Below are positions 45,615 through 58,854 of a stretch of 64,000 bases of DNA, piece after piece. The DNA lies in the NCBI GenBank assembly GCA_965222115.1, contig CBDCTJ010000007.1:2528001-2592000 (forward strand), written 5' to 3'. The translations under genes were made by a program, and so were the position numbers. The notes below the pieces were generated by a model. It saw only the letters and a program-made list of their open reading frames with translations, ran no database searches and had not been told where the DNA came from. How positions within the stretch are numbered: the stretch's first letter is position 1; every line of letters begins with the position of its first letter. Source of the DNA: Planctomycetota bacterium (GTDB lineage Bacteria; Planctomycetota; PLA2; JAEUHO01).

Positions 45615-48212
45615 CTATGCGGCGCGAACGAATGCGTCGCGGATGCCTAAAACGTTCTCCCACCGACGGATGACGAGGTCCGCGAGGAAGAGGAGCAATG
45701 CGAGGCCCAGGCACAGGGGCACAAGGTCGCGCGTGCGTACGCGGCCCGCCGGTAGGGGGGCCATCGTGAGGTTGTCGTTTCCACGCAGCATGCCGCCACA
45801 GGTTGACACAATGCGATTTGCCAGGACTTCGTTGACCCGATTGGAGACGACTTCGGTCGATGTTTCATGGACGAGGCCTGCGGACACGATCTCGGCGCCG
45901 GCCCGCGCGCGAACGAGATAGATCCCAGGGCGGCTTGGGACAAACGAACCTCGATAGCGCCCGGGGCCCGCTTGAGCGAGCGTATCCTCCGACACCTTCT
46001 CCATGCTCGAGCCGAGGGCGCCACGCGGGACGTAGTAGATCGTTGCGCGCACGTCGGCCGCGTTCTTAAACGAAGCGGCGTCTTCTAAGAGGTCCACAAT
46101 GATCTGGGCCTTACCCGATTCGCGTGCAATGCGCACATCCATGGTGCGTCCCTGGGGATTGCGCGCCATTTCGCGCAAGACTTGGCCCCAGAATTGGCCG
46201 TAGCCTTCCCAGCCCGAAACCCATAGCGCAGCCCAACGTGATTTGCAATCCGACGTAAACGCCGTGACCTTCCCAAGTCCGTATCGCCAGTGAGCAAGCA
46301 GCGGGTCGCCAATATCGGTTACCAGTGGCACCTGGCTGGTGGCTTTGGGAAGCGTGCGAACGTAACCAAGGAGCGAAGGCGCTTGATCGGCGTCCCAACC
46401 CGCCAGCATGGCATGGCGTTCCACCTGCTGGGGCTTGAAGGCCTGCTCCCGTACCATCTTGCCCAAGTGGGTGGCCGCGTCTTGGCTGAAGATCTTCGGA
46501 ATGCTAGAGGGATCCACCGTGGCGTAGTGCTTTCCACCGCCCGCTTGCGCGATGCGTTGCAACAACTGATTGTCGGCGCCATGACCCACGCCCACGGCGG
46601 ACACGGTCATACCTTCTGAGTTCATCGTTTGTGCCAGTTGCTCGTAGCCGGCGCCTTGCGAGTGGCCGTCGGTCAACACGATCATGTGCTTGACGCGTGC
46701 GCGCGTGTTCTTGAGTCCCTCGTAGCCCATCGACATGCCGGGGTAAATGTTGGTGCCGCCGCCGGCCGACAACGAGGCGATGCGGCGCTCAATCTCGCCC
46801 TTACGACCCGCGCGCATTACGGGAACCACCCACGAGGCACTGCCTGAGAATGCCACCACGCCAATGTAGTCCTTGCGACTCAACATTTCGGACGTGCCAA
46901 TGGCTGCGGCTTTACAGATGTCGATTTTGCCGCCGCCCATGGACCCCGATCGATCGATGACGAGCACAAGCGCGGTTGAATAGCGCTCCTCTTTGTCAGG
47001 CGGTTGCATGCGAACGGGCAAGATGTCTTCAATGGCCGTTCTGTAGTACCCGCCAACGCCAAAGGAGTTGACGCCACCAATCATGAGAAAGCCACCGCCC
47101 AGCTGCTCGACGTAATCCTGAACGAGTGTCATGGTGCGTTCCGGGAGGCGAAATGCCGCTACATCGGAAAACACAATGCCATCAAATACCGCCAACTCTT
47201 CAAGCGATTGAGGAATCGACTCCGGAGGGCGCACAACGAGTCGAATGCCCTCTTCTTGCATAGCATCAGGCAAGAAGTGGCCCTGTTCCGCATCACCTTC
47301 CACCAACAAAAGAAGCGGGCGTCCGCGAACTTCAACCAACGCCATGGCTTCGTTGTTCTGCGGAATTTCGTCGGTGCGATCGTCTTCAAAGCGGGCCAAG
47401 TAACGATAGAGATTGCGCTCCTCGGGCGTACGCGAAAAGGTCACGTTGCCGTCTTCGCCCGCTTTGAGCGTGACGGGTTTGCTGGCGACTTGCACGCCGT
47501 TCTCAAAAAAGAGGACGCTGCCCTTCGTGTCGTAATTGCTTTGGAGCTCTACCGTAAATTTCAGCGTGGCGCCTTCATGCGATCGTGCTTTGCTCGAACG
47601 CAAACGCACAATGCGCGCATCGGGGCGAGCCTCACCCTTTACGGCCACTACGTCAACGACCACGCCGCCAATACCCAGATCGCGGGCCGCCTCTTCGGCG
47701 TCGCCCTGCGTCTCAACAGCATCACTTACGACAACGATGCGACGTGCCACACCGGGTGGAAATAGGCCGGCCGCGAGAGACAGTCCCGCCGACAGGTCCG
47801 TGGCATGGCCCTGATCGCGCTGAAAGGCATCGTCTGGTACAAAGGAGACAGCGTCCTTCGTGGGGGGAATTAACACTTTCGGTGAAGCGGCAAAGGCCAA
47901 TGCCCCAACAAAAGCACCATCGGGGATGTGATCGAGCAGCGTAGTGACGCGTTCGGTCGCTCGCCGTAGGCCGGCTTCCCCAAGGCTCTTGCTGTGATCG
48001 ACCAAGAAGATCACCGCTTGCTCTTCGCTCGTCTCGTCGACACTGGGCATGGCAAGTGCAAGGATCAACAACGAAAGAAGCGCGGAACGCACAATGAGCA
48101 GGAGTTTCTTACGCTCGGGGCTCATGGGGTGAACCGATCGCTTGGCGGCCCACATGACCAGCAAGACCGCGGGGACGATGAGCAATAGAAGCGCGGGATG
48201 TTCGAAGCTCAA
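45615..48212 (-). CDS. Membrane protein with two vWA domains and a glutamine-amidotransferase-like domain
   Basis: BatA-like N-terminal TMs; DHSKS and DRSGSM MIDAS motifs; GGGFLMIGGVNSFGVGGY; HWRYGLGKV; C-terminal TM. Confidence 0.88.
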   Translation of the reverse strand: MSFEHPALLLLIVPAVLLVMWAAKRSVHPMSPERKKLLLIVRSALLSLLILALAMPSVDETSEEQAVIFLVDHSKSLGEAGLRRATERVTTLLDHIPDGAFVGALAFAASPKVLIPPTKDAVSFVPDDAFQRDQGHATDLSAGLSLAAGLFPPGVARRIVVVSDAVETQGDAEEAARDLGIGGVVVDVVAVKGEARPDARIVRLRSSKARSHEGATLKFTVELQSNYDTKGSVLFFENGVQVASKPVTLKAGEDGNVTFSRTPEERNLYRYLARFEDDRTDEIPQNNEAMALVEVRGRPLLLLVEGDAEQGHFLPDAMQEEGIRLVVRPPESIPQSLEELAVFDGIVFSDVAAFRLPERTMTLVQDYVEQLGGGFLMIGGVNSFGVGGYYRTAIEDILPVRMQPPDKEERYSTALVLVIDRSGSMGGGKIDICKAAAIGTSEMLSRKDYIGVVAFSGSASWVVPVMRAGRKGEIERRIASLSAGGGTNIYPGMSMGYEGLKNTRARVKHMIVLTDGHSQGAGYEQLAQTMNSEGMTVSAVGVGHGADNQLLQRIAQAGGGKHYATVDPSSIPKIFSQDAATHLGKMVREQAFKPQQVERHAMLAGWDADQAPSLLGYVRTLPKATSQVPLVTDIGDPLLAHWRYGLGKVTAFTSDCKSRWAALWVSGWEGYGQFWGQVLREMARNPQGRTMDVRIARESGKAQIIVDLLEDAASFKNAADVRATIYYVPRGALGSSMEKVSEDTLAQAGPGRYRGSFVPSRPGIYLVRARAGAEIVSAGLVHETSTEVVSNRVNEVLANRIVSTCGGMLRGNDNLTMAPLPAGRVRTRDLVPLCLGLALLLFLADLVIRRWENVLGIRDAFVRAA

Positions 48213-48261: not shown

Positions 48262-50229
48262 TCAGAACATGCTCCAGCGATGAAAGAGCCACGCCTCGCC
48301 AATCAACAGCAAGAGCAAAATCCAAATCAGGTGCGGGCGCAAGTCGCCCTGAAACCATGAGGATCCTCCAACCGTTGCCTCGTGTTGCTCGACGTCGGTT
48401 TCGGCCGTTGGCGGCATCGTTTCTGAATGTGAGAGTAGCGCGGCACTGCCGCGACGATCCCCAACTTGCCAGGCGCCAACGGATGTAAGCTCCAGCAACG
48501 CGCCCGAAGCCGTGGCCTGCGTCTCCTTGAGTGCGCCATGTGCATCGGGAATCAACCAGCGGACGTCTCGTGCCCCGTCATTGGCATCTGCCACGTCGAG
48601 CACGTCTCCGGTACGTCGATAGGTTGAGCGGGTTGGATCGTCGTCTTTCTGGCAACACCAAAGAATTGCGTTGCCGAGTAGCAGCGGGTAAGCGGGCGTA
48701 AACGGTAAGGACTCAGAACGCTCCGCGGAGAATCCCATGACCACAACGCGTTGCCCACGAACATCACCGGCGACAAGGAGCGGGCCGTTCGGGCCAAGCC
48801 ATAGCGGCGTCATGGGTCCGTCGCCCTCGAGCACTGTGGTTTGCGTGAGCGCCACGCGTTCGCTGGCAACGCCATAGAGCAATGGATGATCCTGGTTGAT
48901 TGCCCGCAGGTGATCTACCGGAAGACCGTCGCCCGACAGTGCTGCCGCTTCAATGGGTCCTATGGACCCCGTGGGACGCAGCACAATCGCCGGGACGTTC
49001 GTTGGCCACGTAGGCGGCAGCCATCCGTCAAAGAGCACCACGTCAACGTCGTCGCCCACTGGCTTTTCCGCGTAGGGCCACCCCGCGGGCTCCATTTCGA
49101 ACCCCTCGACTTCGCCGCCATCCATGAACGATTGCAACGCAATCTGTGTGAACGGATCGGGGTTGTCTCGCACCCACAGCACATTGAGGGGCTTACGTGG
49201 AGGCAGAGGCGCGACGACGCGGTTGTCGGACGCCAGTGCGTCGCCGGGTGTCTTTAGGTGGAACTGAACCGTATCGCCCGCTTGCCCTTCAATGGGAATC
49301 ATCAACCGAACGGGTTCGCCGGGTGGAATCGATACCTCGCGAAGTGCAACCAGTTCTTTGTCGAGGCGCACGTCCAACGAACAGGCGAGCGGCTTGTCAT
49401 CGGTACCCTGTCCGCGCAATTCAACGAAGGCTTCAAAGCGCCCGTGTTCAAGCGGAAGCGGTCGCATAGAAAACGCCGTAATGCCGGCATTGACGACTGC
49501 CGTGTCACCAATCACAAGTTGCGCGAATTCTACATCGTCCGAAAGGCCGAAATAGTGTTCTAGCGACAGTGCCTTCGGCTCCTGATCGGGTGCGTCAGTG
49601 CCTTCGATTGCAGTGCCTGAGGATTCACGTTTCGGCATGGCGAACGAGCGATCCGAAATGTGTAGAATCCGTGCGGGTTTCACCATACCCGCCAGTCGCC
49701 CAGCAAGTCGGAGGGCGCGTTCGGGATCACCGGCAACCGGTCGCGTTTCAAGCCCTCGGAGCGCCCGGCGAAATTCGCGCCGATCCAAACTGTGGGGCAC
49801 CAAAATTTCGGGCCGCTTGTCGTAACGCATAAGCAAGAGACTCGTGCCCGCGCCCAACGCAGCGATCCGGCGTTCGATTTCCTGCTTGGCCGCGTCCATG
49901 CGCGTGCGTCCTTCTGCGTCTTTCATGGCCATGGAGGCGGAGCCATCCAACACAACCACCATGCCGTTCCAACTTCCCGCCGCGGGTGACGCGATGAGTC
50001 GGCTCAATCCAAAGACGATGCACGCCAACGTAAGCACGGCAAAGAGCACGGCGAGCAGCTTCTTTAGCCGACGCAGCCAGGGCGACTCTTGGTACACCAC
50101 CGCCAACGACTTGAAGAAGGGTAGTGTGCTCACGCGCACGCGTTGGGGGCGACGCTTGAACACAAATAGCAAGATCGCCGGAACGATCAACCAAAGCAGA
50201 GCAAGTAGGGCGGGTGAAGCGAATCGCAT
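48262..50229 (-). CDS. BatA-domain / vWA-domain membrane protein
   Basis: MRFASPALLALL...P..LL BatA N-terminus; VLDGSASM MIDAS; C-terminal TM (LLLLIGEAWL). Confidence 0.88.
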   Translation of the reverse strand: MRFASPALLALLWLIVPAILLFVFKRRPQRVRVSTLPFFKSLAVVYQESPWLRRLKKLLAVLFAVLTLACIVFGLSRLIASPAAGSWNGMVVVLDGSASMAMKDAEGRTRMDAAKQEIERRIAALGAGTSLLLMRYDKRPEILVPHSLDRREFRRALRGLETRPVAGDPERALRLAGRLAGMVKPARILHISDRSFAMPKRESSGTAIEGTDAPDQEPKALSLEHYFGLSDDVEFAQLVIGDTAVVNAGITAFSMRPLPLEHGRFEAFVELRGQGTDDKPLACSLDVRLDKELVALREVSIPPGEPVRLMIPIEGQAGDTVQFHLKTPGDALASDNRVVAPLPPRKPLNVLWVRDNPDPFTQIALQSFMDGGEVEGFEMEPAGWPYAEKPVGDDVDVVLFDGWLPPTWPTNVPAIVLRPTGSIGPIEAAALSGDGLPVDHLRAINQDHPLLYGVASERVALTQTTVLEGDGPMTPLWLGPNGPLLVAGDVRGQRVVVMGFSAERSESLPFTPAYPLLLGNAILWCCQKDDDPTRSTYRRTGDVLDVADANDGARDVRWLIPDAHGALKETQATASGALLELTSVGAWQVGDRRGSAALLSHSETMPPTAETDVEQHEATVGGSSWFQGDLRPHLIWILLLLLIGEAWLFHRWSMF

Positions 50230-50238
50230 GCCTAGGAA

Positions 50239-51156
50239 CTAGGCGCCTGCTAATGCGCTGCCCTTGGACAGTAGATCCAAGAACGCGCCTTCAAAGGGCG
50301 CTTCGGTGTTCCACAAGCTGTAGGCCACCTGCTTTTGCATACAGAACTGGCGTAGGTCCTCCACAAAGGCATCAAACGCGTTGGTGTATCGTTCCATGTC
50401 ACGTTTGTTGAGATGGATTCGACGCATTTCACCGGTCTCAACGTCCACCAATTGCAACTCGCCTTCCAGGCGCGGGCGGAGTTCGAGCGGATGCAGAAAC
50501 TGCACGACGTGAGTTTCCGCAGGCCAATGAAGCGCGCTCCGTAAGGATTCACGTGCCTGCGAGGGGTCGAGACTCAGAAGATCACTGAGCACAAAGACGA
50601 TGCCCTTGCGGCCCTGCCCCGGGCGAAACGCACGCAGGCACGAGAGATTGGTTTCACCTTGAAACGATAGGCCCGATAAGTGGTCGAGCACCTTGTGAAT
50701 GTGACCTTGGCCTTTGAGCGGGGGCGTGGCAATGTCAAGCGTGTCACCGAAGGTGCGCAGCGATACGCGGTGTTGGTTCATCAACGCGAGATAGGCGAGC
50801 GCAACGGCGAGCCGCAGCGACATGACGCGCTTCTCGGGGTGGGGCTCAATCATGGACGCCGAGCGGTCCAGCAGAATGTGAACGTGAAACTCTTGAATCT
50901 CTTCGAAGAGCTTTACATACAGCTTGTCCATGCGGGCATACAGCCGCCAATCGATACTTCGAAAGTCGTCGCTGGAGGTGTAGGAGCGGTAGTCCTTGAA
51001 CTCACGTGTAAATCCAAGTGCCGTGGTTTGTTCAGCGCCCTTTTTCTGAAGTTGGCGGCGCTTGCGTAGCTTGAAGAAGAGCGTACGGAGACGTCGCAAA
51101 AAGTCGGCATCAAAGAGCTGCTCGTCACTCGCATTGTCACTTACATAGTCACTCAT
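50239..51156 (-). CDS. DUF58 domain protein
   Basis: EFKDYRSY...DDFRSIDWRLYAR..KLYVKLFEE and ILLDRSASM motifs. Confidence 0.92.
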   Translation of the reverse strand: MSDYVSDNASDEQLFDADFLRRLRTLFFKLRKRRQLQKKGAEQTTALGFTREFKDYRSYTSSDDFRSIDWRLYARMDKLYVKLFEEIQEFHVHILLDRSASMIEPHPEKRVMSLRLAVALAYLALMNQHRVSLRTFGDTLDIATPPLKGQGHIHKVLDHLSGLSFQGETNLSCLRAFRPGQGRKGIVFVLSDLLSLDPSQARESLRSALHWPAETHVVQFLHPLELRPRLEGELQLVDVETGEMRRIHLNKRDMERYTNAFDAFVEDLRQFCMQKQVAYSLWNTEAPFEGAFLDLLSKGSALAGA

Positions 51157-54100
51157 CGCGGGTCCCCGTACCGCGCGATCCCGACTTTGGATCTGCCTTT
51201 TGTGTGGGCATTTCCAAGGCAACAACTTCGCTGTACGAACGCGTGGTGTAGAGCGCGCTCGGGTCTACAACCATTACGCGCGTGGCGCGAAGGTCGGTGG
51301 CTGTACTGCCGGTCTGCTGAATTACGGGGGGCTGGTAGTAGGGCATGCGGTAGCCGCGCCGCATCATCATCATGCGCGAACGATGCTGGGCCATAGCGAG
51401 CCTACTTTTGGCCGACGATTGGGCGTTTACCACGCCGCGGAACAGATAACGCAATCGCGGCGCCGCTTTGCGCTTCTTTCGTGTGCGGCCCCAGGCATCT
51501 ACGGTTTCTTCGTAGGCGTCATCCTCGTCTATGGCGAGTTCATGGGGCCATGGGACGTCCGCTACCGTGGTGCCGCTCTCCACGTGAATCGTTAGGATGC
51601 GCTCATCGCCTGCGGCATACACGTATCCATCCACATACGTGGCTCGGATCGGGTGATCGTTCGCGAAGTCTTTATCAAAGGCGATGAGGCGACGATTGCC
51701 GGTGATTGGATGTAGGCGCGTGATGCCCTTCTCACTGAGGAAGAGCAAGTGCTGCTGGTGCCGGCCCATGTACACGCCTGGCATTTCGTCGTGGACGTGC
51801 GTTCGGAATGGCTCACGAATGCTGGCGACCGTCAATGTGCCCTTGGCGGGCGCCGTTGTTTCAAGCGAATCGCGAAACAGGAGCAGGGATTCGTCTTCGA
51901 TGAGCCCCTTACGTTTTTGGTTGCCGATAAGCGGCGATCCCCAGTGGGCAACGGTCGCCACAGGATGCAACGTCGATGCGGATGACGCCGCGCTCCACGC
52001 GGGTGGCGGCGCGCCGAAGTGAGAACCCATGTAGATCGGGGTGCCGGAACTCGAATAAATCATGGGCGGGCTGCTCGCAAACGGCGAAGAACCGCCGCAG
52101 CTACCGCCGCACGACAAGCCTGAGGAGAATGATGAATAGATGGGGCCGCCCATGGGCATCCCACCGCCAAAGAGCGGCGAGGAGAACAAGGAGGACCAGC
52201 CGCCGCGACCACCACCGTCTTCGCGCTCGGGCTCTTTGAGTTCCACGGGTACGGAGCGAACCTTACTTGGGTCAAAGCGCCACAAGTGGTGTCCATCCGA
52301 TGCGTCGAGCACAAAGGTGTGTTTTCCGAACGCCAAGATGTGGTCGCCCTGTACCGAGAGACCTGAATTGGTGGCATGGGCGCCATCGGCCGCGTCCCCA
52401 AGTTCGTGCCACCACTTGACCTTGCCGTGAGCCGGCTCAATACAACGAATCTCTTCGGAATAGGCGTCGAACACAATGAGCCCATGCGGTGACGTCGCAA
52501 TGTGCACCGGACCGTGGTCGGCCACAATTCGCCACGCCAAGTTTCCGGCTTCATCGTAACACTCGACATTTGGACCGCGCACGAGTGCCACGCGATTGCT
52601 GGCGGGCAGCGCGACTTGACTTTCGCTCGTCACGGAACTCGGTAGTGTCCAGGTGAGCTTGCCCGACGCGCGATTCAAGCAATGCATCGCACCGTCGCTT
52701 GTAGTCAACAGCAGTCGCGCGTTGCCAAACCCAAGCAGCGCCGTGGGCCGACTGTCGTAGAGTTTGAATACCCAGCGCACCCGATCGGCGCCTGCCGGAC
52801 CTGCCCCGACACCCTTGCCCGTATTGGCGGCATTCGGCTTCGTGCTAGCGGGCGTGCCGTTGGTCCCCAAGTCGGCCATTCTCTCCAGCCCTTGCCACGA
52901 GGCGGCCAATCCATCGGGAAACGCAATCCACTCAGACTCATCGCCCATGGCCAACGTGTTCGCTCGCTTGCGTGACGGTTTGTTGTCGCGCGTCTTGGTC
53001 GTCCGACCGGCTTCTTCGCTTTGAAGGGTGCGAAGTTCCTTGAGTGTTTCTAAGGCATCGGCCTTTGCCTTTGTTCGTCCCAGGCGACCCAGTGCGTAAA
53101 CGCGAGACCAGCTCTGCCAAAGCGGGCGGCGGGTTGGGGGATACAAGCGTTCTGCTCGGTCAAGCGTGCTCAATGCCTGAATGAACTCGCCTTCATGTCC
53201 CCGACGAAATGCAGCGGATACACCGCGCCAGTAACTGTCGGATAGGTGTTCTCGCAGTAGGCGACGGGTTTCATTGGCAACCGGCATGCGTGGTATTCCA
53301 CGCAGAAGTCGCCGTAGCGTGCGGCGGAGTTTGTCCTCGTCGCCAACGGCTACAAGCGTGGTGATCCAGCGCTCCCAGTTGGAGCGACGCTCGGGTTCGG
53401 CCTGGGTGAGCCGCTCATAGATGCTTAACAGGCGCTCGTAGTCATTGAGTTGGCGGTAGGGGCGAGCGAGACGTGCCAAGAGCTCGGCGTCGCCGATCTT
53501 GGAAACATCCAGCGACTCGAGGTGCTTCTCAGCGCGTGGGTAGTCACGTTCATCAAAGTAGACCAACGCCAAACGCGCTTTGTATTCTTCGGCGTGATCG
53601 GTGTCGTCCTCGATAAGCGACTCAAGTTCCGCGCCGGCAAGTACGGAGTGGCGGGAATTGCGTTCTAGATGCAGCGCGAGATGTCGCCGCAAAGCAAGGG
53701 CTGCTTTCTCGGGTGGATTGCCTGCTAGCAACTCTTCTACCAGGGCACGTGCTTCGGCAATCCGGTAGCGGCGCGAACTCACGTCAAGAAACGCAGCGAT
53801 GCGGTCGACGCGCGTGCCATCCCAAGCACCGGTCTCTTGGGCGAGGCGGACCTGTTCTTGTTCCAAGAACTTGCCCGATTCGGCATACGATGCGGCAAAG
53901 TCGGTGGCAAGTGTAAGCCACCGTCGATAGCGCGCCGGGGAGTCGGCCAGACGACGAAGATCAAGGACAAGTCGTGCGCCACTACGAGGTCGAATCAAGT
54001 AGCCGCGAACTTTGAGTAGGGCCAAACCAAGTGCGAAGTGCTCGGGTTGTTTGGCGTGACGCTCCATGAGTGCGCGTTCGGCTTGCCGAAAGTGGCCCGC

Positions 54101-55678
54101 CTCCATCATGAAGTTCATGAGGTCTAAGAACTCATCGTTGCCAACGGCATCGGGGATGGGACGAACCATGAGGCGGTGTAGCGCCGCGCGGTCTCGTTGT
54201 GTGCGAAGCATTTCACCGAGTTCACGCAAGACGGCCGCGCGCTCGGGTGCCAAGTCGAGCGCGCGCATAAAGAGCGTAACGCTCGGCTTGGGGCGATTGT
54301 TTCCGCGTAAGAAACGTGCCATATCGAGCAGCCGCGAGACCTGCTTGTCGCTCGGAAGATTGGCAATGGCCTTTTCGAACTCCGCGGTGGCGTCTTTCGT
54401 GCGACGCAACAAGAACAGCGCGCGAATATGGCGATCGACGAGATCGTCGCGGCTAGGAAATTTCTCAATTCGTGCTTCGAGGTATTTGACGCGACGGCGT
54501 ACATCGCCCAAGTGATCGAAGACGTCCAGCGTTTCCTTTTCGAGCTGGGCCGAGTTGGGCATGCGCTTGGATGCATCAAGCAGTACGGTCAAGGCCTCGC
54601 GATGGCGATCGAATCCACGTAACATGCGCGCCAAGTCAAGGGCCACGGTATCTCGATTTGGGTGGTCGGCAACCGCTCTGCGCGCCGCGTCGAGCATGGT
54701 GTCGCGTTCGCCTTCGGATGCAATCAACCGTTGGCGCATGGTGAGCACTTCGGAGCGACGCCAATGATCGGCCGTCAATCGAGTCAGCAGCTTGTCGAGT
54801 CGATCGCGCGCGGCTTTGCTTCGGCGAAGCGATATCTCGCTAACCGCGGACAGCAACTCGATATCAATAATGGTCTCCGGCGAGGGTCCCGCCCCCGCGG
54901 CCTGCGTCAATACCTCTAACGCCTTCTCGTGCAGTCCAAATGAAGCAAGGCGCTTGGCCGCGCGCACCTTGCCCTCTGCCCGCGGACCTTGGATGTCGAT
55001 CATGGTCTTAACGTGGCGCTTGGCCACGTCGCGGCGATCGTCTTCCAAGGCGAGTTTGAGCAGCTTTTCAATCCACTTGGCGCGAGCCCGAGGATCGGTA
55101 CCAAACTCGACGGCCTTGTCGAGTGCGTCAATCGCCTTTGGATCGCCCGCCTCGTGCAAGTGTTCGAAGAGCAAGTAGTGCAGGTAGCCGCTCTTTGGGA
55201 ACACGCGCAGCGCTTCGCGCACCTGGTTGGCTGCCTCCGGATCGTTGATCGACGAAAGCAGCCGCACATAGACAATGCGCCCCGCTTCATCGTTGGGATA
55301 TACCGTGGTGTGTTGCCGGTACATGCCGACCAACCGATCGACCTCGCCGGCCTTTTGATACATCTCAAGCAATCGGGCGAAGAGTGCGTCCTGCGTTGGG
55401 TATTGTTGGAGGCGCGCGCGAAACTCCAGACTCCGCTCGTCCAAGCTCTGAGTTGCTGCACCCGTGTCGCGCTTGTCGATTTCTGCCGTCTTGTCCTCTT
55501 TGTTGTCTTCTTCGGCGAAGACCGTTGGGGTGAAGCGCAAGGCCTCGCCACCGCCAAGGGCGAATAGAACCAGCACAAGCCAAAGTAGAGAACGCGCCCC
55601 GCGCCAGCGCATCGAATGCGATGGGGACGACATGGCGGCACGCGACCGGTCGGTGCGTCGAGCACGGTACATAGACAC
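51149..55678 (-). CDS. Large exported TPR + PQQ-type beta-propeller protein
   Basis: Signal peptide, ~800 aa of TPR-like helices, then PQQ-like repeats (CLNRASGKLTW, CIEPAHGKVKW, LDASDGHHLW). Confidence 0.8.
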   Translation of the reverse strand: MSMYRARRTDRSRAAMSSPSHSMRWRGARSLLWLVLVLFALGGGEALRFTPTVFAEEDNKEDKTAEIDKRDTGAATQSLDERSLEFRARLQQYPTQDALFARLLEMYQKAGEVDRLVGMYRQHTTVYPNDEAGRIVYVRLLSSINDPEAANQVREALRVFPKSGYLHYLLFEHLHEAGDPKAIDALDKAVEFGTDPRARAKWIEKLLKLALEDDRRDVAKRHVKTMIDIQGPRAEGKVRAAKRLASFGLHEKALEVLTQAAGAGPSPETIIDIELLSAVSEISLRRSKAARDRLDKLLTRLTADHWRRSEVLTMRQRLIASEGERDTMLDAARRAVADHPNRDTVALDLARMLRGFDRHREALTVLLDASKRMPNSAQLEKETLDVFDHLGDVRRRVKYLEARIEKFPSRDDLVDRHIRALFLLRRTKDATAEFEKAIANLPSDKQVSRLLDMARFLRGNNRPKPSVTLFMRALDLAPERAAVLRELGEMLRTQRDRAALHRLMVRPIPDAVGNDEFLDLMNFMMEAGHFRQAERALMERHAKQPEHFALGLALLKVRGYLIRPRSGARLVLDLRRLADSPARYRRWLTLATDFAASYAESGKFLEQEQVRLAQETGAWDGTRVDRIAAFLDVSSRRYRIAEARALVEELLAGNPPEKAALALRRHLALHLERNSRHSVLAGAELESLIEDDTDHAEEYKARLALVYFDERDYPRAEKHLESLDVSKIGDAELLARLARPYRQLNDYERLLSIYERLTQAEPERRSNWERWITTLVAVGDEDKLRRTLRRLLRGIPRMPVANETRRLLREHLSDSYWRGVSAAFRRGHEGEFIQALSTLDRAERLYPPTRRPLWQSWSRVYALGRLGRTKAKADALETLKELRTLQSEEAGRTTKTRDNKPSRKRANTLAMGDESEWIAFPDGLAASWQGLERMADLGTNGTPASTKPNAANTGKGVGAGPAGADRVRWVFKLYDSRPTALLGFGNARLLLTTSDGAMHCLNRASGKLTWTLPSSVTSESQVALPASNRVALVRGPNVECYDEAGNLAWRIVADHGPVHIATSPHGLIVFDAYSEEIRCIEPAHGKVKWWHELGDAADGAHATNSGLSVQGDHILAFGKHTFVLDASDGHHLWRFDPSKVRSVPVELKEPEREDGGGRGGWSSLFSSPLFGGGMPMGGPIYSSFSSGLSCGGSCGGSSPFASSPPMIYSSSGTPIYMGSHFGAPPPAWSAASSASTLHPVATVAHWGSPLIGNQKRKGLIEDESLLLFRDSLETTAPAKGTLTVASIREPFRTHVHDEMPGVYMGRHQQHLLFLSEKGITRLHPITGNRRLIAFDKDFANDHPIRATYVDGYVYAAGDERILTIHVESGTTVADVPWPHELAIDEDDAYEETVDAWGRTRKKRKAAPRLRYLFRGVVNAQSSAKSRLAMAQHRSRMMMMRRGYRMPYYQPPVIQQTGSTATDLRATRVMVVDPSALYTTRSYSEVVALEMPTQKADPKSGSRGTGTRDE

Positions 55679-56790
55679 TACTCCGCGGCGTGGCTGGGAG
55701 CCGGGGTCTCACGAATCAAGGTGTCGATCAAATCATCCACATTGAGCGACTCGGCTTCACCTTCGAAGTTGAGAATGATGCGGTGGCGCAACGCGGGTTT
55801 GGCCGCGCGACGTACGTCGTCAATGGAGACCGCCGTGCGACCGTCGAGTAGGCAGTACACGCGGGCCGCTCGTATAAGCGTCTGCATGCCTCGTGGGCTG
55901 GCGCCATAGGCCACCATGCGCTTGACCTGCTCGTTGCCGTCGCCATCGGGATGGGTACTCAAAACCAGGGACGCGGCATACGTGGCAATGGGATCGGCCA
56001 CCGGCACATGCGTAATGAGCTGTTGGAAGCGCGTGAGATCGTCACCCGTCATCACCGTATCCACATCCGGCTCCACAAAGCCTGTGGTGCGGCGTGAGAT
56101 TTCGACCAACTGCTCTTTGCTGGGGTATCGCACACGCAACTTGAAAAAGAATCGGTCAAGCTGTGCTTCGGGAAGCGGATAGGTGCCTTCCATCTCCAGT
56201 GGATTTTGCGTTGCGAGCAAGAAGAAGGGCGCTGGTAAGTCGAACTGATCACCGCCCACCGTGACGCGTCGCTCCTGCATGACTTCCAATAGGGCGGCTT
56301 GCGTCTTGGGCGTGGCTCGGTTGATTTCATCGACGAGCAGCAAGTGTGTAAAAACGGGTCCCTTTTCAAATCGGAAGGAGCGATGCCCTCGATCGTCTTC
56401 ACTCACAATGTGGTTACCCAGAATGTCGGCAGGCATGAGATCGGGCGTGCACTGAATGCGACCAAAGCCGAGTTCAAGCACACGGCCCAACATGCGCACC
56501 AAAAACGTCTTACCGAGTCCGGGCACACCTTCTAAGAGCACATGACCGCCACTAAACACACCAATGAGCACGTCGCGAATGAGTTCGTCGTGGCCGACGA
56601 CCGCGCGTTGCATCTGCTTGAGCGTGTTTGGGAAGGTGGTGCGGAAGTGTTCAAACTCGGATGCGAGCGCTTTGGCGTCCTGGCCTTCAAACGCATCGCG
56701 CATCCCAGTGGCGGACGCAGTCGCGCTCGCCGAGGCCGTTCCACCTACGGGCACATCCCCGCGCCCCTCACTCGTCTGCGGGTCACTCAT
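55678..56790 (-). CDS. moxR: MoxR family AAA+ ATPase
   Basis: HVLLEGVPGLGKT, RIQCTPDLMPADILG, DEINRATPKTQAALLEVMQE, ATQNPLEMEGTYPLPEAQLDRF and GASPR motifs. Confidence 0.96.
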   Translation of the reverse strand: MSDPQTSEGRGDVPVGGTASASATASATGMRDAFEGQDAKALASEFEHFRTTFPNTLKQMQRAVVGHDELIRDVLIGVFSGGHVLLEGVPGLGKTFLVRMLGRVLELGFGRIQCTPDLMPADILGNHIVSEDDRGHRSFRFEKGPVFTHLLLVDEINRATPKTQAALLEVMQERRVTVGGDQFDLPAPFFLLATQNPLEMEGTYPLPEAQLDRFFFKLRVRYPSKEQLVEISRRTTGFVEPDVDTVMTGDDLTRFQQLITHVPVADPIATYAASLVLSTHPDGDGNEQVKRMVAYGASPRGMQTLIRAARVYCLLDGRTAVSIDDVRRAAKPALRHRIILNFEGEAESLNVDDLIDTLIRETPAPSHAAE

Positions 56791-56793
56791 GGC

Positions 56794-58812
56794 TTAGCGT
56801 CCTTCTTCTTTGGCGCGCGCAGGTTGCCCGGCTTCCGACCCAGGGTCTTCCAACCGACGGCGTAGTTCTGTGAAGTATCGAAGCACTTGTTCACGGCGCG
56901 ACAGGGGTATGGGGTCATCGGCCAGTGCTTCTTCTTGTGCCTTTAAGAACTCCACCGTGATGTCTTGCACCGAACGCGACGAGCCCTCCGAACGCGGTTG
57001 GCCATCGATGTCGCGGGTTGTGCTTGGGCCGGCGCCGCGAGGAGCCACGCTAATGCGTTCTTCGCGATTGGCGCGCGAACCGGGGCGCGTGCCCCCGCCC
57101 ATAGGTGCCGATCCTGAACCGGCACTGTTGCTGCTTGAGTTGCTCTGTGAGCCACTCTGTCCACCTTGACCGGGGATTACGCCTGCGCCAGAACTTGAGG
57201 AGCTACCTGCTCCTGAGCCGGAACCACTTCAGGTTCCGCCTGGGCCGCTCTTTCAGGTGCCGCCGGGTGATGTGCCCGGAATGGGGGCGCCGCCGCGTCG
57301 TCCTTTGTTGCCGGTCCCCGGTGTAGGGGTTCGCCCGCTCCGCGAGCGTCCACAGTTCGGTCAGCACGGTCCTTGATTGCCGGGTGGTGGTTGGGTGCCC
57401 GGCGTGGGGGTTGAGGACGATTGATGACTGTTGTAGCGACGATTGTTCTTGGGCTGATTGCGCTGATAGGACGAGTAGCGCCGCGTCAATGGAATCGGCT
57501 GATTTGAGTTGTTGTTGCGCAACGACTTGAGGTTGCGATTCGCGGTCATGGTTGTGAGCTGTTTCATGGTGCGGCCCGACTTGCCAAGCGCGCGCTGCCC
57601 CGATGCCCGCAGATTGCGTGCGAGACGACGAAGTTGATTGCGCATACGAAGTCGATTGGCCGCCTTTTTGTACTTGCGCGCCAGTTCACGGAGTTCGCGT
57701 GAGGCCCCCTTGGCGTCTTTGGCATCCAGTCGCTTCTGCGCCGCCGCCAAATGGCGACCCAAGGCAGTCTTTAGATCCTTGGCCGAAGCCTTCTTGAGTC
57801 CCGCGGCGAACGCAGTCGAAATCCTCGCGCGTTCTTCATGGGTGAGTTTGTCGGATGCCAATCGTTCGGCGAGCTTGAGCGCTTCGGCCGAGGCGCGCTT
57901 CATGTCTTCGGCGCGAAGTGCACCGGCGAGCGCTGCGGTGTCGGCATGTCGCTCCAACTCGGCCAACAGCGCGGAACTTACCTTTTCGCCCATGGCCTTA
58001 AGCCCGGCCGCCAGCTTTTCTGCTTCGCGTGCTTGCTTCTCAAGGGCTTCGAGCACCTTTCGAGACGACTGCTTCTCCTTTTCCTTCATCTTCTCGGCAC
58101 TGGCCTTCATTTCTTTCTTGAGATCGTCGAGTGCTTTGGCTTCTTCGGGCGTGAGAGCCTTCTTCTCGTCTTCGAGACGCTTCGCTTCGTCTTCCATGGC
58201 GGTGGCGACGTCGGTGGCATCAACCGTGCGGTCTTCAGGTGCAGAAATCTTGTCGATCACAACAATCGAGAGTGCAACGGCACAGAAGAGGGCCGGAGCA
58301 AGCAAGCTCGAGAGCGGTGCGCGCAGCGGTACATACGTGGACACCTTGGTACGCGCTTGATCCAGGGCTCGCGTAGCGCGTTCCATGTGGAGCATCTCGC
58401 CGGCATCGGTCGGCATACCTCCAGCGCGACGCTCAAAGGCATGGGCTGAAAGTAGGGTTTCGCCGGTTCCTGCGCTGCGGTCAACCAGTGCCAATGCAGA
58501 TGCGGGCGACGGTCTACGCAGAAGGCTGTAAAACAAACACGCCAAGGCCCAGACACCTACGGCCAACACACAGATTGCGACGCGCGCAAAGGCGGATTCC
58601 GGCGCCCAGGGGTGACCGAAGATACGGCTAAGCACTACCAGGACGGCCAGCGCGCCAAAAACGGGCCATGCACTGGCGCGAAGGGATCGGAACCAGTCTC
58701 GAAGCAAAAGCCTCGAAGCAAGGCGTTCACCAAACGCCGTAAACGGTCCTCCTACGGTTGCGTTCGATATGACGCGGTGCGCATCGGCTTGTGGTGTGGT
58801 TGGATTGTTCAT
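56794..58812 (-). CDS. Putative single ~672-aa membrane/coiled-coil MoxR-operon protein with three in-frame TGA codons (candidate Sec at codons 484, 520, 528)
   Basis: ORFs 57361..58812 and 56794..57102 share a frame. The gap reads GPC*PNCGRSRSGRTPTPGTGNKGRRGGAPIPGTSPGGT*KSGPGGT*SGSGSGAG...SAPM with TGA as the only stops. The C-terminus IPLSRREQVLRYF resembles the tail common to such MoxR-associated proteins. Confidence 0.75.
57198..57214 (-). promoter_or_regulatory. Candidate bacterial SECIS 3 (after TGA 57229..57231)
   Basis: Perfect 6-bp stem AGGAGC/GCTCCT starting at +15; loop AGGUA at +21. The GC-AGGU context matches the E. coli fdhF SECIS apex. Confidence 0.55.
57219..57238 (-). promoter_or_regulatory. 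Candidate bacterial SECIS 2 (after TGA 57253..57255)
   Basis: Perfect 7-bp stem CGGAACC/GGTTCCG starting at +15; loop UGAAGU at +22 contains the third UGA. Confidence 0.5.
57318..57360 (-). promoter_or_regulatory. Candidate bacterial SECIS 1 (after TGA 57361..57363)
   Basis: Upper stem CGCTC/GAGCG with loop GCG starting at +18 from the UGA; possible lower stem TGTGG/CTACA. Confidence 0.45.
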
Positions 58813-58854
58813 TGAAACCTCAGGTTTCGTTGTTTGGCGTGAAGAGACGACGCA

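Follow-up and report, generated by a model that had tools for sequence, protein, structure and literature searches.

A gene in a MoxR/vWA operon of a Planctomycetota bacterium very probably encodes a membrane protein with three selenocysteines in a linker predicted to be disordered

The gene described here lies on the minus strand of a 64,000-nucleotide stretch of DNA from a Planctomycetota bacterium (assembly GCA_965222115.1, contig CBDCTJ010000007.1, positions 2,528,001 to 2,592,000), which is referred to below as the window. At positions 56794-58812, the window very probably holds one gene for a 672-residue inner-membrane protein, in which three UGA codons would be decoded as selenocysteine (Sec) through SelB and Sec-tRNA(Sec). 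This reading, drawn from sequence analysis, is held because the locus behaves as one gene, the UGA codons are conserved, Sec and Cys are exchanged among relatives, hairpins are correctly placed, the Sec machinery is encoded in the genome and UGA also serves there as a stop. The initial annotation of the window had proposed a single protein of about 672 residues with three Sec, and the proposal is supported by frame, conservation, hairpins and machinery alike. The coordinates of all features are given in Table 1.

The reading frame was followed from the ATG at 58812 to the TAA at 56794-56796, and the internal stops were three, all of them TGA. Neither TAA nor TAG nor a frameshift was found by this frame analysis inside the 672 codons. 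The open reading frame (ORF) finder lists a 483-aa and a 102-aa ORF as separate entries that share a common frame; the claim that three in-frame TGA codons join these two ORFs was borne out in every detail, positions and contexts included. Among database proteins, one with 82% identity to the first ORF stops at the same residue (...GNQGPC). Sampled 31-mers of window positions 56700-58900 were present at 0.91, 0.78 and 0.63 in three public runs (two samples, one study).

Relatives of the protein were collected by a word-based search of 5.8 billion proteins, which gave 160, and by a profile search of 1.84 billion cluster representatives, which gave 1262 at E <= 0.001, 440 at E <= 1e-10 and 194 at E <= 1e-30; the initial search for relatives used a stricter first look, by which weak matches were possibly missed. 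Wherever the source or title of a record names an organism, it belongs to the Planctomycetota or the Verrucomicrobiota. A single ORF of about 600-650 residues with both the N-terminal E..HADT and the C-terminal RREQVLRYF motif was found in 167 homologous proteins. At the DNA level, 160 loci were fetched (80 from the genome collection and 80 from metagenomes); both end motifs were in range in 134 and shared a common frame in 133 of these. The genome-collection loci account for 69 of 80 with both motifs in range, all 69 in one frame (60 without Cys, 6 with Cys and 3 with TGA), and the metagenome loci for 65 of 80, of which 64 have the motifs in one frame; in the remaining one, L144, the frames differ. 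These frame counts cover the loci in which the motif search found both ends in range and leave aside 11/80 genome-collection and 15/80 metagenome loci; the latter comprise 13 with the C-terminal motif alone (including L166, L167 and L168, with 2-3 TGAs) and two with neither motif. The different frames of the N- and C-terminal motifs in the metagenome contig L144 could stem from a frameshift, an assembly error or mis-paired motifs, and another locus, L170, shows extra stops upstream of the gene on a short contig.

At every Sec-form locus examined (the window, L008, L009, L014, L015, L018, L137, L166, L167 and L168), the C-terminal domain was in the frame of the preceding TGAs, and the N-terminal part also shares that frame where the locus holds it (the window, L008, L009, L014, L018 and L137). 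In the printed loci the frame runs across every TGA into the C-terminal domain, so the length differences between relatives keep the frame. The nucleotide changes between closely related loci were counted by codon position over two stretches, one bounded by the first and the last TGA and the other reaching from the latter to the C-terminal domain. Between L014 and L015, differences at positions 1/2/3 were 4/1/17 (14 synonymous and 4 non-synonymous), and between L008 and L014 they were 9/6/25. This third-position bias indicates translation in this frame both between the TGAs and beyond them. As homologs carry both end motifs in one frame, the 102-aa ORF can be taken as the C-terminal domain of the same protein.

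The alternative that survives best, itself improbable, is that the UGAs are ordinary stops, so that only the 483-residue protein is made and the C-terminal domain is either translated separately from the ATG at 57102 or left unmade. An AGGA does lie 9 nt before this ATG, as had been pointed out beforehand, and in all database records of the Sec forms the gene has been split or cut short by the gene caller. Thirteen such proteins end at presumptive Sec sites, eight of them with ...GGT, two with ...GPC (the window ORF and its 82% identical relative), two with ...CPG and one with ...PPGKT. Moreover, termination at UGA always competes with Sec insertion, and truncated forms are therefore probably made too. 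However, the ATG at 57102 lacks conservation, with F, L or Y at its position in the other rows, and the homologs are single genes; the two separate genes that had been named as a ground for rejecting the proposal were not found. An ordinary stop is equally hard to reconcile with the 167 single-ORF homologs, with a C-terminal domain kept in frame with the TGAs at every Sec-form locus examined and with the third-position-biased change between and after them, and it also has to face the alternation of Cys and Sec at the first site and the hairpins at the distance of a Sec insertion sequence (SECIS), both described below.

The TGA codons recur outside the genome of the window. Five genomes of g5, which is another or sister genus with about 42% identity, carry in-frame TGAs in this gene (G017, G022, G042, G043 and G044), as do the four metagenome contigs L137, L166, L167 and L168, with 2-3 TGAs each. 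In G017 and G022, the linker reads ...CPGCPNCG...PGGT-TGA-x6-GGT-TGA-SGSG; G042 and G044 have CPT-TGA plus three GGT-TGA, making four TGAs, and G043 has CCPT-TGA plus two GGT-TGA. The contigs L137 and L168 share an identical linker peptide with CPG-TGA-ANC and two GGT-TGA, L167 has CPGCPNC and three GGT-TGA, and L166 resembles G017. That three chance nonsense mutations were unlikely had been argued from the window, and this recurrence of the same in-frame TGAs in independent assemblies agrees with it.

In the codon alignment, the first UGA pairs with TGC (Cys) in L008, the locus of G022, and G017 reads CPGCPNCG there, whereas a TGA is aligned in G042, G043, G044 and L137. The second and third UGA pair with TGA in L008 and L137; the PGGT-U motif of the second is also found in G017, G042, G043, G044 and L167, and the GGT-U-SGSG motif of the third recurs in the remaining Sec-form loci. 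The comparison suggested at the outset for codons 484, 520 and 528 thus gave Cys or TGA at 484 and a conserved TGA at 520 and 528. Because the window TGA pairs with TGC in relatives, the first Sec can be placed at the second Cys of a CPxC knuckle; the site is C-U-x-x-C in the window and C-x-x-U or C-x-x-C in relatives.

Forms with Cys and no stop were found in 6/80 genome-collection and 11/80 metagenome loci, with 1-4 Cys in the linker and motifs such as CPxCGGxCxGxC, GQCPNCGGACQGQCQG and GACPQCGGACQGACQG, among them GGxC and QGxC types. A linker with neither Cys nor stop is present in 60 genome-collection loci, mostly from Verrucomicrobiota. The distant Cys forms may offer counterparts for the GG-T-U units, with a linker alignment that is only rough at this distance. 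A tree of 131 rows groups the Sec-form rows, six in number, in one clade (support 99), which is nested in a 38-row clade that holds all 17 Cys-form rows.

Bacterial SECIS elements are described as a stem of 6-8 bp whose loop holds a conserved G some 20 nt downstream of the UGA (PMC4605307). Each of the three UGAs of the window is followed by a hairpin of this kind (Table 1), and the loop of the second hairpin includes the third UGA, so that the signals are nested. Hairpins with a stem of at least 5 bp and a loop starting 19-22 nt after the UGA were then counted at 24 UGA sites in 8 loci. They were present at 22/24 UGA sites, compared with 124/1194 (10.4%) neighbouring in-frame codons of the same linkers. 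At shifted offsets the count was background-like, with 4/24 sites at 9-12 nt (12.6% of neighbouring codons) and 1/24 at 29-32 nt (10.6%). With one locus per lineage (four representatives) the figures were 11/12 and 58/610, and for the window alone 3/3 UGA sites and 9/161 neighbouring codons. The loop begins with G in 18 of the 22 hairpins, most commonly as GGUC or GYGG. Of the two UGA sites outside the count, one does have a hairpin, with the loop at 24 nt.

The hairpin downstream of the final UGA was also analysed in an 8-sequence alignment, in which 85.7% of the cells are paired and 5/7 pairs have changed on both sides. Its covariation score was 0.495, compared with 0.176 for shuffles (0/500 reach the observed value) and at most 0.255 for slid partners. 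In genus g5, a hairpin GCACCUGAA-GYGG-UUCAGGUGC serves one UGA and has the following UGA within its stem. At L014 1717-1756 (G044), a tandem repeat of 21 nt, ACCTGAAGCGGCTCAGGTGGT, was found with 1.9 copies and 84% matches, and it corresponds to one T-U-S-G-S-G-G unit; no tandem repeat was found in window 57050-57450 at a score of 30 or above. Depending on the locus, 2 or 3 GGT-U units are present. As the repeat in G044 equals one unit, the hairpins are nested and the unit count varies, duplication of a unit is the likely way in which a Sec codon would be added together with the hairpin for the preceding UGA.

The genome of the window encodes selA (416 bits), selB (SelB wing domain at 53.9 bits in a 651-aa frame), one 99-nt tRNA-Sec with anticodon UCA and a long extra arm, the sole UCA tRNA among 50 tRNAs, and a Sec-type selD with the GG-U-AAK motif (150.6 bits, above the cut-off). 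The search for Sec machinery asked for by the initial annotation therefore recovered all four components. The selA gene is present in all five g5 genomes, hence in 6/6 genomes with TGA forms; selD with a single TGA was found in three of the four g5 genomes searched for it and in G001, from another genus, and no selD match was obtained in the remaining one, G022. The machinery does not separate Cys from Sec forms, since selA is also present in 4/5 genomes with Cys-form genes.

Four other genes of the genome are likely selenoprotein genes, with one in-frame TGA each: three of the AhpC/TSA family (FTFV-U, GTG-U-KPC and GTT-U-GPC) and one SelW-like gene (CSM-U), located at C7:2272665-2273063, C3:119856-120200, C7:2028037-2028303 and C7:2324572-2324787. 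As control hairpins, that of selD has its loop start about 21-22 nt after the UGA, and 3/4 of the AhpC/TSA and SelW-like genes have it at 19-22 nt. Formate dehydrogenase (TIGR01553) was also tried as a SECIS control and was rejected, as none of its 11 matches in the genome was above the cut-off and none had an internal stop. TGA terminates 414/1514 open frames of at least 400 codons in this genome, two ORFs of the operon among them, and the same gene itself ends with TGA in G042, G043 and G044. A genome-wide change of code, which had been discounted from the window, is thus not indicated: TGA is a normal stop in the genome and for this gene in those three relatives.

Sec insertion could also be mimicked by read-through of the UGAs by another route, such as a near-cognate Trp, Cys or Arg tRNA, a suppressor tRNA or another recoding signal. 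In other systems, a hairpin that follows a stop codon can favour its read-through, no Rfam SECIS model matched the linker and the Sec reading rests on sequence. We consider this route still less probable than ordinary termination, given that selA accompanies the TGA form in 6/6 genomes, that the residue aligned in homologs is Cys, as in classical Sec/Cys pairs, that the hairpin geometry equals that of the genome's own selD, Prx-like and SelW-like genes, that the sole tRNA with a UCA anticodon is tRNA-Sec and that TGA ends 414 of the 1514 long frames. A decaying pseudogene, or TGAs produced by assembly errors, is the least probable of all, as the contig ends of this assembly are indeed rich in indels but its observed errors are indels and not substitutions, the 672 codons hold no frameshift, TAA or TAG, the 82% identical protein ends at the same residue, and the TGAs are kept across two genera and several independent assemblies.

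Several observations weigh against decoding of the three UGAs as Sec. The selD of the genome can be read only with repeated frame changes that return to the same frame, with five TGA and one TAA inside the match. This gene sits in the last 1.2 kb of contig C1, and contigs from two public runs differ from this stretch by 0 substitutions and 4-10 small indels per piece; because the differences are indels only, they point to assembly errors at the contig end as the source of the frame changes. The TGAs of the window, in turn, are known from the letters of the assembly, the runs having been compared by sampled 31-mers, and among the runs that hold the window stretch none is recorded as RNA. Furthermore, the Sec clade has no Cys at the two GGT-U positions, and the pairing there would depend on distant Cys forms with a poorly alignable linker.

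The remaining adverse points concern the hairpins and the yield. The hairpin criterion was set after the folds had been inspected and the 8 loci are related, which limits the counts given above. Codon 137 of L015 lacks such a hairpin even at 19-24 nt (1/24 sites). Folding energy is not distinctive, 5% to 82% of neighbouring positions being at least as stable; as a SECIS test it was uninformative, because Gly/Ser/Ala/Pro codons pair easily and the whole linker folds strongly, and it was replaced by the position-specific hairpin count with controls. The Rfam scan of 56900-57500 gave 0 matches at E <= 10, a result that says little as the SECIS models were unchecked on the selD, Prx-like and SelW-like hairpins of the genome. 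Finally, three UGAs in series are expected to lower the yield of full-length protein.

Two further observations were made on the assembly. The end of contig C1 (L101, C1:652000-655637) holds the selA C-terminus and the Sec-type selD, with many 1-2 nt indels relative to the run contigs, and the remainder of selA starts contig C7 (C7:4-1092); the ends of C1 and C7 therefore abut, with the break inside the selA-selD locus. Contig C6 (48116 nt) has a GC content of 39.7%, compared with 55-59% in the other six contigs, and may be a contaminant, a plasmid or a phage.

The architecture of the full-length protein was analysed with hydropathy and charge in 15 homologs and with an AlphaFold2 run on a 15-row alignment. 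Residues 23-425 were modelled as confident helices, with a predicted local distance difference test score (pLDDT) mostly of 80-97; residues 425-610 had a pLDDT below 50 and no structure, and residues 610-655 scored 72-84. The Sec residues would thus fall in a disordered linker, as had been proposed at the outset. The three hydrophobic helices are conserved. The N-terminus carries a net positive charge, and a net acidic stretch follows the third helix; by the positive-inside rule, this hints weakly at a large C-terminal part outside the cytoplasm, in the periplasm. The fold gives no functional lead, because a Foldseek search of the model against PDB returned 0 matches at E <= 0.001. Pfam gave 0 families for either ORF; NCBIfam gave only three aspartate-kinase models (E 0.0049-0.2, 10-16 bits against cut-offs of 208-726), and when the Cys-form homolog P0012 was searched in the ESM Atlas, all clusters returned were labelled 'hypothetical protein' and had no Pfam family in common.

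The gene order on the minus strand is two paralogs, the Sec gene, a MoxR gene, a 1509-aa TPR/beta-propeller gene, DUF58, BatA+vWA, vWA+GATase1-like and an 808-aa ORF, and the composition identifies the cluster as a Bat-like MoxR/DUF58/vWA operon. The two upstream paralogs (772 and 799 aa) are related at E = 4e-16 by BLASTP, with 23% identity over 491 columns, and neither has a Pfam or NCBIfam match; their ORFs overlap by 146 nt, which suggests that the true start of the second lies downstream of the GTG at 61254. The C-terminal tail of the 799-aa protein (...TKDPEVERRLRRLL) recurs in L008 and L009, where it lies upstream of the homolog, and the MoxR gene directly follows the homolog in L008 and L011 too. 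Beyond the gene at 61109-63427, genes lie on the opposite strand. The MoxR protein also matches PF20030 (bpMoxR) with 41.8 bits against a cut-off of 27, a family that derives from MoxR-vWA-beta-propeller ternary systems (PMC7159879).

Table 1. Features of the Sec gene, its predicted protein and its operon, in window coordinates.
Feature	Position	Strand	Basis
Predicted Sec gene, 672 codons + TAA, U484/U520/U528	56794..58812	(-)	Frame analysis and conservation
UGA 1, codon 484, context GPC-U-PNCG	57361..57363	(-)	Codon alignment
UGA 2, codon 520, context PGGT-U-KSG	57253..57255	(-)	Codon alignment and motif recurrence
UGA 3, codon 528, context PGGT-U-SGSG	57229..57231	(-)	Codon alignment and motif recurrence
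SECIS-like hairpin 1, CGCUCGC / GGA / GCGGGCG, loop start 19 nt after UGA 1	57332..57348	(-)	Fold
SECIS-like hairpin 2, CGGAACC / UGAAGU / GGUUCCG, loop start 21 nt after UGA 2	57219..57238	(-)	Fold
SECIS-like hairpin 3, AGGAGC / AGGUA / GCUCCU, loop start 20 nt after UGA 3	57198..57214	(-)	Fold and covariation
Three hydrophobic helices, 49-66, 75-98 and 167-187 (residues 49-187), with a 68-residue loop between the second and third	58252..58668	(-)	Hydropathy/charge in 15 homologs, AlphaFold2
Helical, charged, coiled-coil-like domain, residues 188-425, invariant E..HADT	57538..58251	(-)	pLDDT mostly 80-97, alignment
Gly/Ser/Pro linker, residues 426-609 (90/184 G, S or P), with all three predicted Sec	56986..57537	(-)	Composition, pLDDT
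Conserved C-terminal helical hairpin, residues 610-655 (EEEAL..EPLPLSRREQVLRYF..LR)	56848..56985	(-)	Alignment, AlphaFold2
First gene on the strand of the cluster, 772 aa, paralog of the 799-aa protein	61109..63427	(-)	BLASTP
Upstream gene, ORF up to 799 aa, no known family	58855..61254	(-)	Pfam/NCBIfam scans, locus comparison
MoxR-type AAA+ ATPase, ATG 4 nt after the TAA of the Sec gene	55678..56790	(-)	PF07726 AAA_3, E = 5e-59
1509-aa protein, TPR repeats and PQQ-like beta-propeller	51149..55678	(-)	Pfam
DUF58 protein	50239..51225	(-)	PF01882, E = 2.4e-32
BatA N-terminal domain + vWA protein, ORF ends with TGA	48262..50229	(-)	BatA 1.1e-07, VWA_2
vWA domain + GATase1-like domain protein	45615..48212	(-)	VWA 5.1e-32

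For the synthesis of the protein, SelB bound at each hairpin would deliver Sec-tRNA(Sec) to each UGA in turn, and after a failed insertion, chains of 483, 519 or 527 residues that lack the C-terminal domain would be released. The proportion of full-length protein would then depend on the supply of selenium. The C-U-x-x-C site, together with the pair of G-G-T-U units, might form a redox centre of the selenylsulfide/diselenide kind or bind a soft metal, and the flexible tether that bears them would join the membrane-proximal helical domain to the C-terminal hairpin in a MoxR/vWA complex for redox stress. Bat operons have been linked to oxidative-stress tolerance in Bacteroidota and others (PMC11834572). 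Such a redox or metal-tether function is offered tentatively, and we regard it as rather doubtful.

A further possibility, for which we see a somewhat better chance though still short of an even one, is that the G-G-T-U repeats are a self-propagating recoding module. It would give the Bat-like MoxR/vWA complex a disordered tether with 2-4 Sec, acting as a selenium-dependent arm for redox or metal binding, and a selenium-gated C-terminal domain. Each unit of about 21-24 nt (ACC UGA AGY GGY UCA GGU G..) would hold a Sec codon together with the SECIS hairpin for the UGA one unit upstream. Since a unit would contain both a codon and the signal of its neighbour, a tandem duplication would add a Sec plus the signal to decode the neighbouring one.

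The decoding mechanism proposed here is the known one, and what would be new are the family, the number and placement of Sec and the nested hairpins. As in the bacterial SelB/SECIS selenoprotein genes (selD, Prx, SelW-like), there is an in-frame UGA, a loop about 20 nt downstream and an exchange of Sec and Cys, and the motif at the first site is of the CxxU / CUxxC type, akin to the TxxU, UxxC and CxxU motifs of Prx and SelW-like selenoproteins. Unlike in the known bacterial selenoproteins, the window protein would have three Sec and its relatives up to four; these would be carried by a membrane protein, in a linker predicted to be disordered and not in a folded redox domain, and the signals are nested, the loop or stem of one hairpin containing the UGA that follows. 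Table 1 of a 2026 review (PMC13188914) gives 119 prokaryotic selenoprotein families with at most three Sec per protein, most with one, and no MoxR- or Bat-linked membrane protein is among the entries of that table that were consulted; S9 Table of PMC4807772, with the candidates of two planctomycetes, or Table S2 of BSepDB might list the family. The same review describes small Gly-rich or metal-binding selenoproteins, namely selenobacteriocin (SGUG), UXX-star family 2 (GxGU), a metal-binding protein (UxxU) and MbdU, and suggests that Sec may serve as a metal ligand in some of them. These share with the window protein the Gly-rich Sec context, and some have two Sec, but they are small soluble proteins or peptides, whereas the protein considered here is a 672-residue membrane protein in a MoxR operon with no NCBIfam match.

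Several Sec in one polypeptide are known from the eukaryotic selenoprotein P (PMC6301783). The window protein would resemble it in having several clustered Sec in one chain, but the two have no sequence relation, each UGA has an in-frame hairpin here, and the protein would be membrane-anchored and not secreted. In selenoprotein P, which is a secreted protein, the Sec are clustered in a C-terminal stretch and are inserted with a 3'-UTR (untranslated region) SECIS and eukaryotic factors. As to the operon, it shares with described Bat operons the MoxR AAA_3 protein, DUF58, BatA N-terminal + vWA, a second vWA protein and a TPR protein. It differs in that the Sec protein and its two upstream paralogs match no described Bat component, and in that homologs of the Sec protein were found only in Planctomycetota and Verrucomicrobiota, among records that name the organism. 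The terms 'MoxR' and 'Planctomycet' have 0 occurrences each in the main text of PMC13188914, the deep-Sep paper and the BSepDB paper, the search having been confined to text outside the supplementary tables, and a full-text literature search pairing 'selenocysteine' with 'MoxR' gave unrelated titles only. The statement made at the outset, that no characterised selenoprotein was known in MoxR/vWA systems, is in keeping with the main text of these overviews.

In the literature searched, as far as the sources consulted extend, bacterial selenoproteins are nearly all enzymes or small redox proteins, and a single Sec sits in their folded active site. The family of the window would place three Sec, and four in some relatives, in the low-complexity linker of a membrane protein of a MoxR/vWA operon, and it is found in the Planctomycetota, a phylum unnamed in the main text of the three overview papers. 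As gene callers truncate every Sec-form record examined, these genes are mis-annotated in public databases. The family would offer a natural system in which to study bacterial SECIS elements that are nested and closely spaced, and the efficiency of serial Sec insertion. The cluster of Sec and Cys would also be the first chemical handle on an operon family that extends across Planctomycetota and Verrucomicrobiota (440 representatives at E <= 1e-10).

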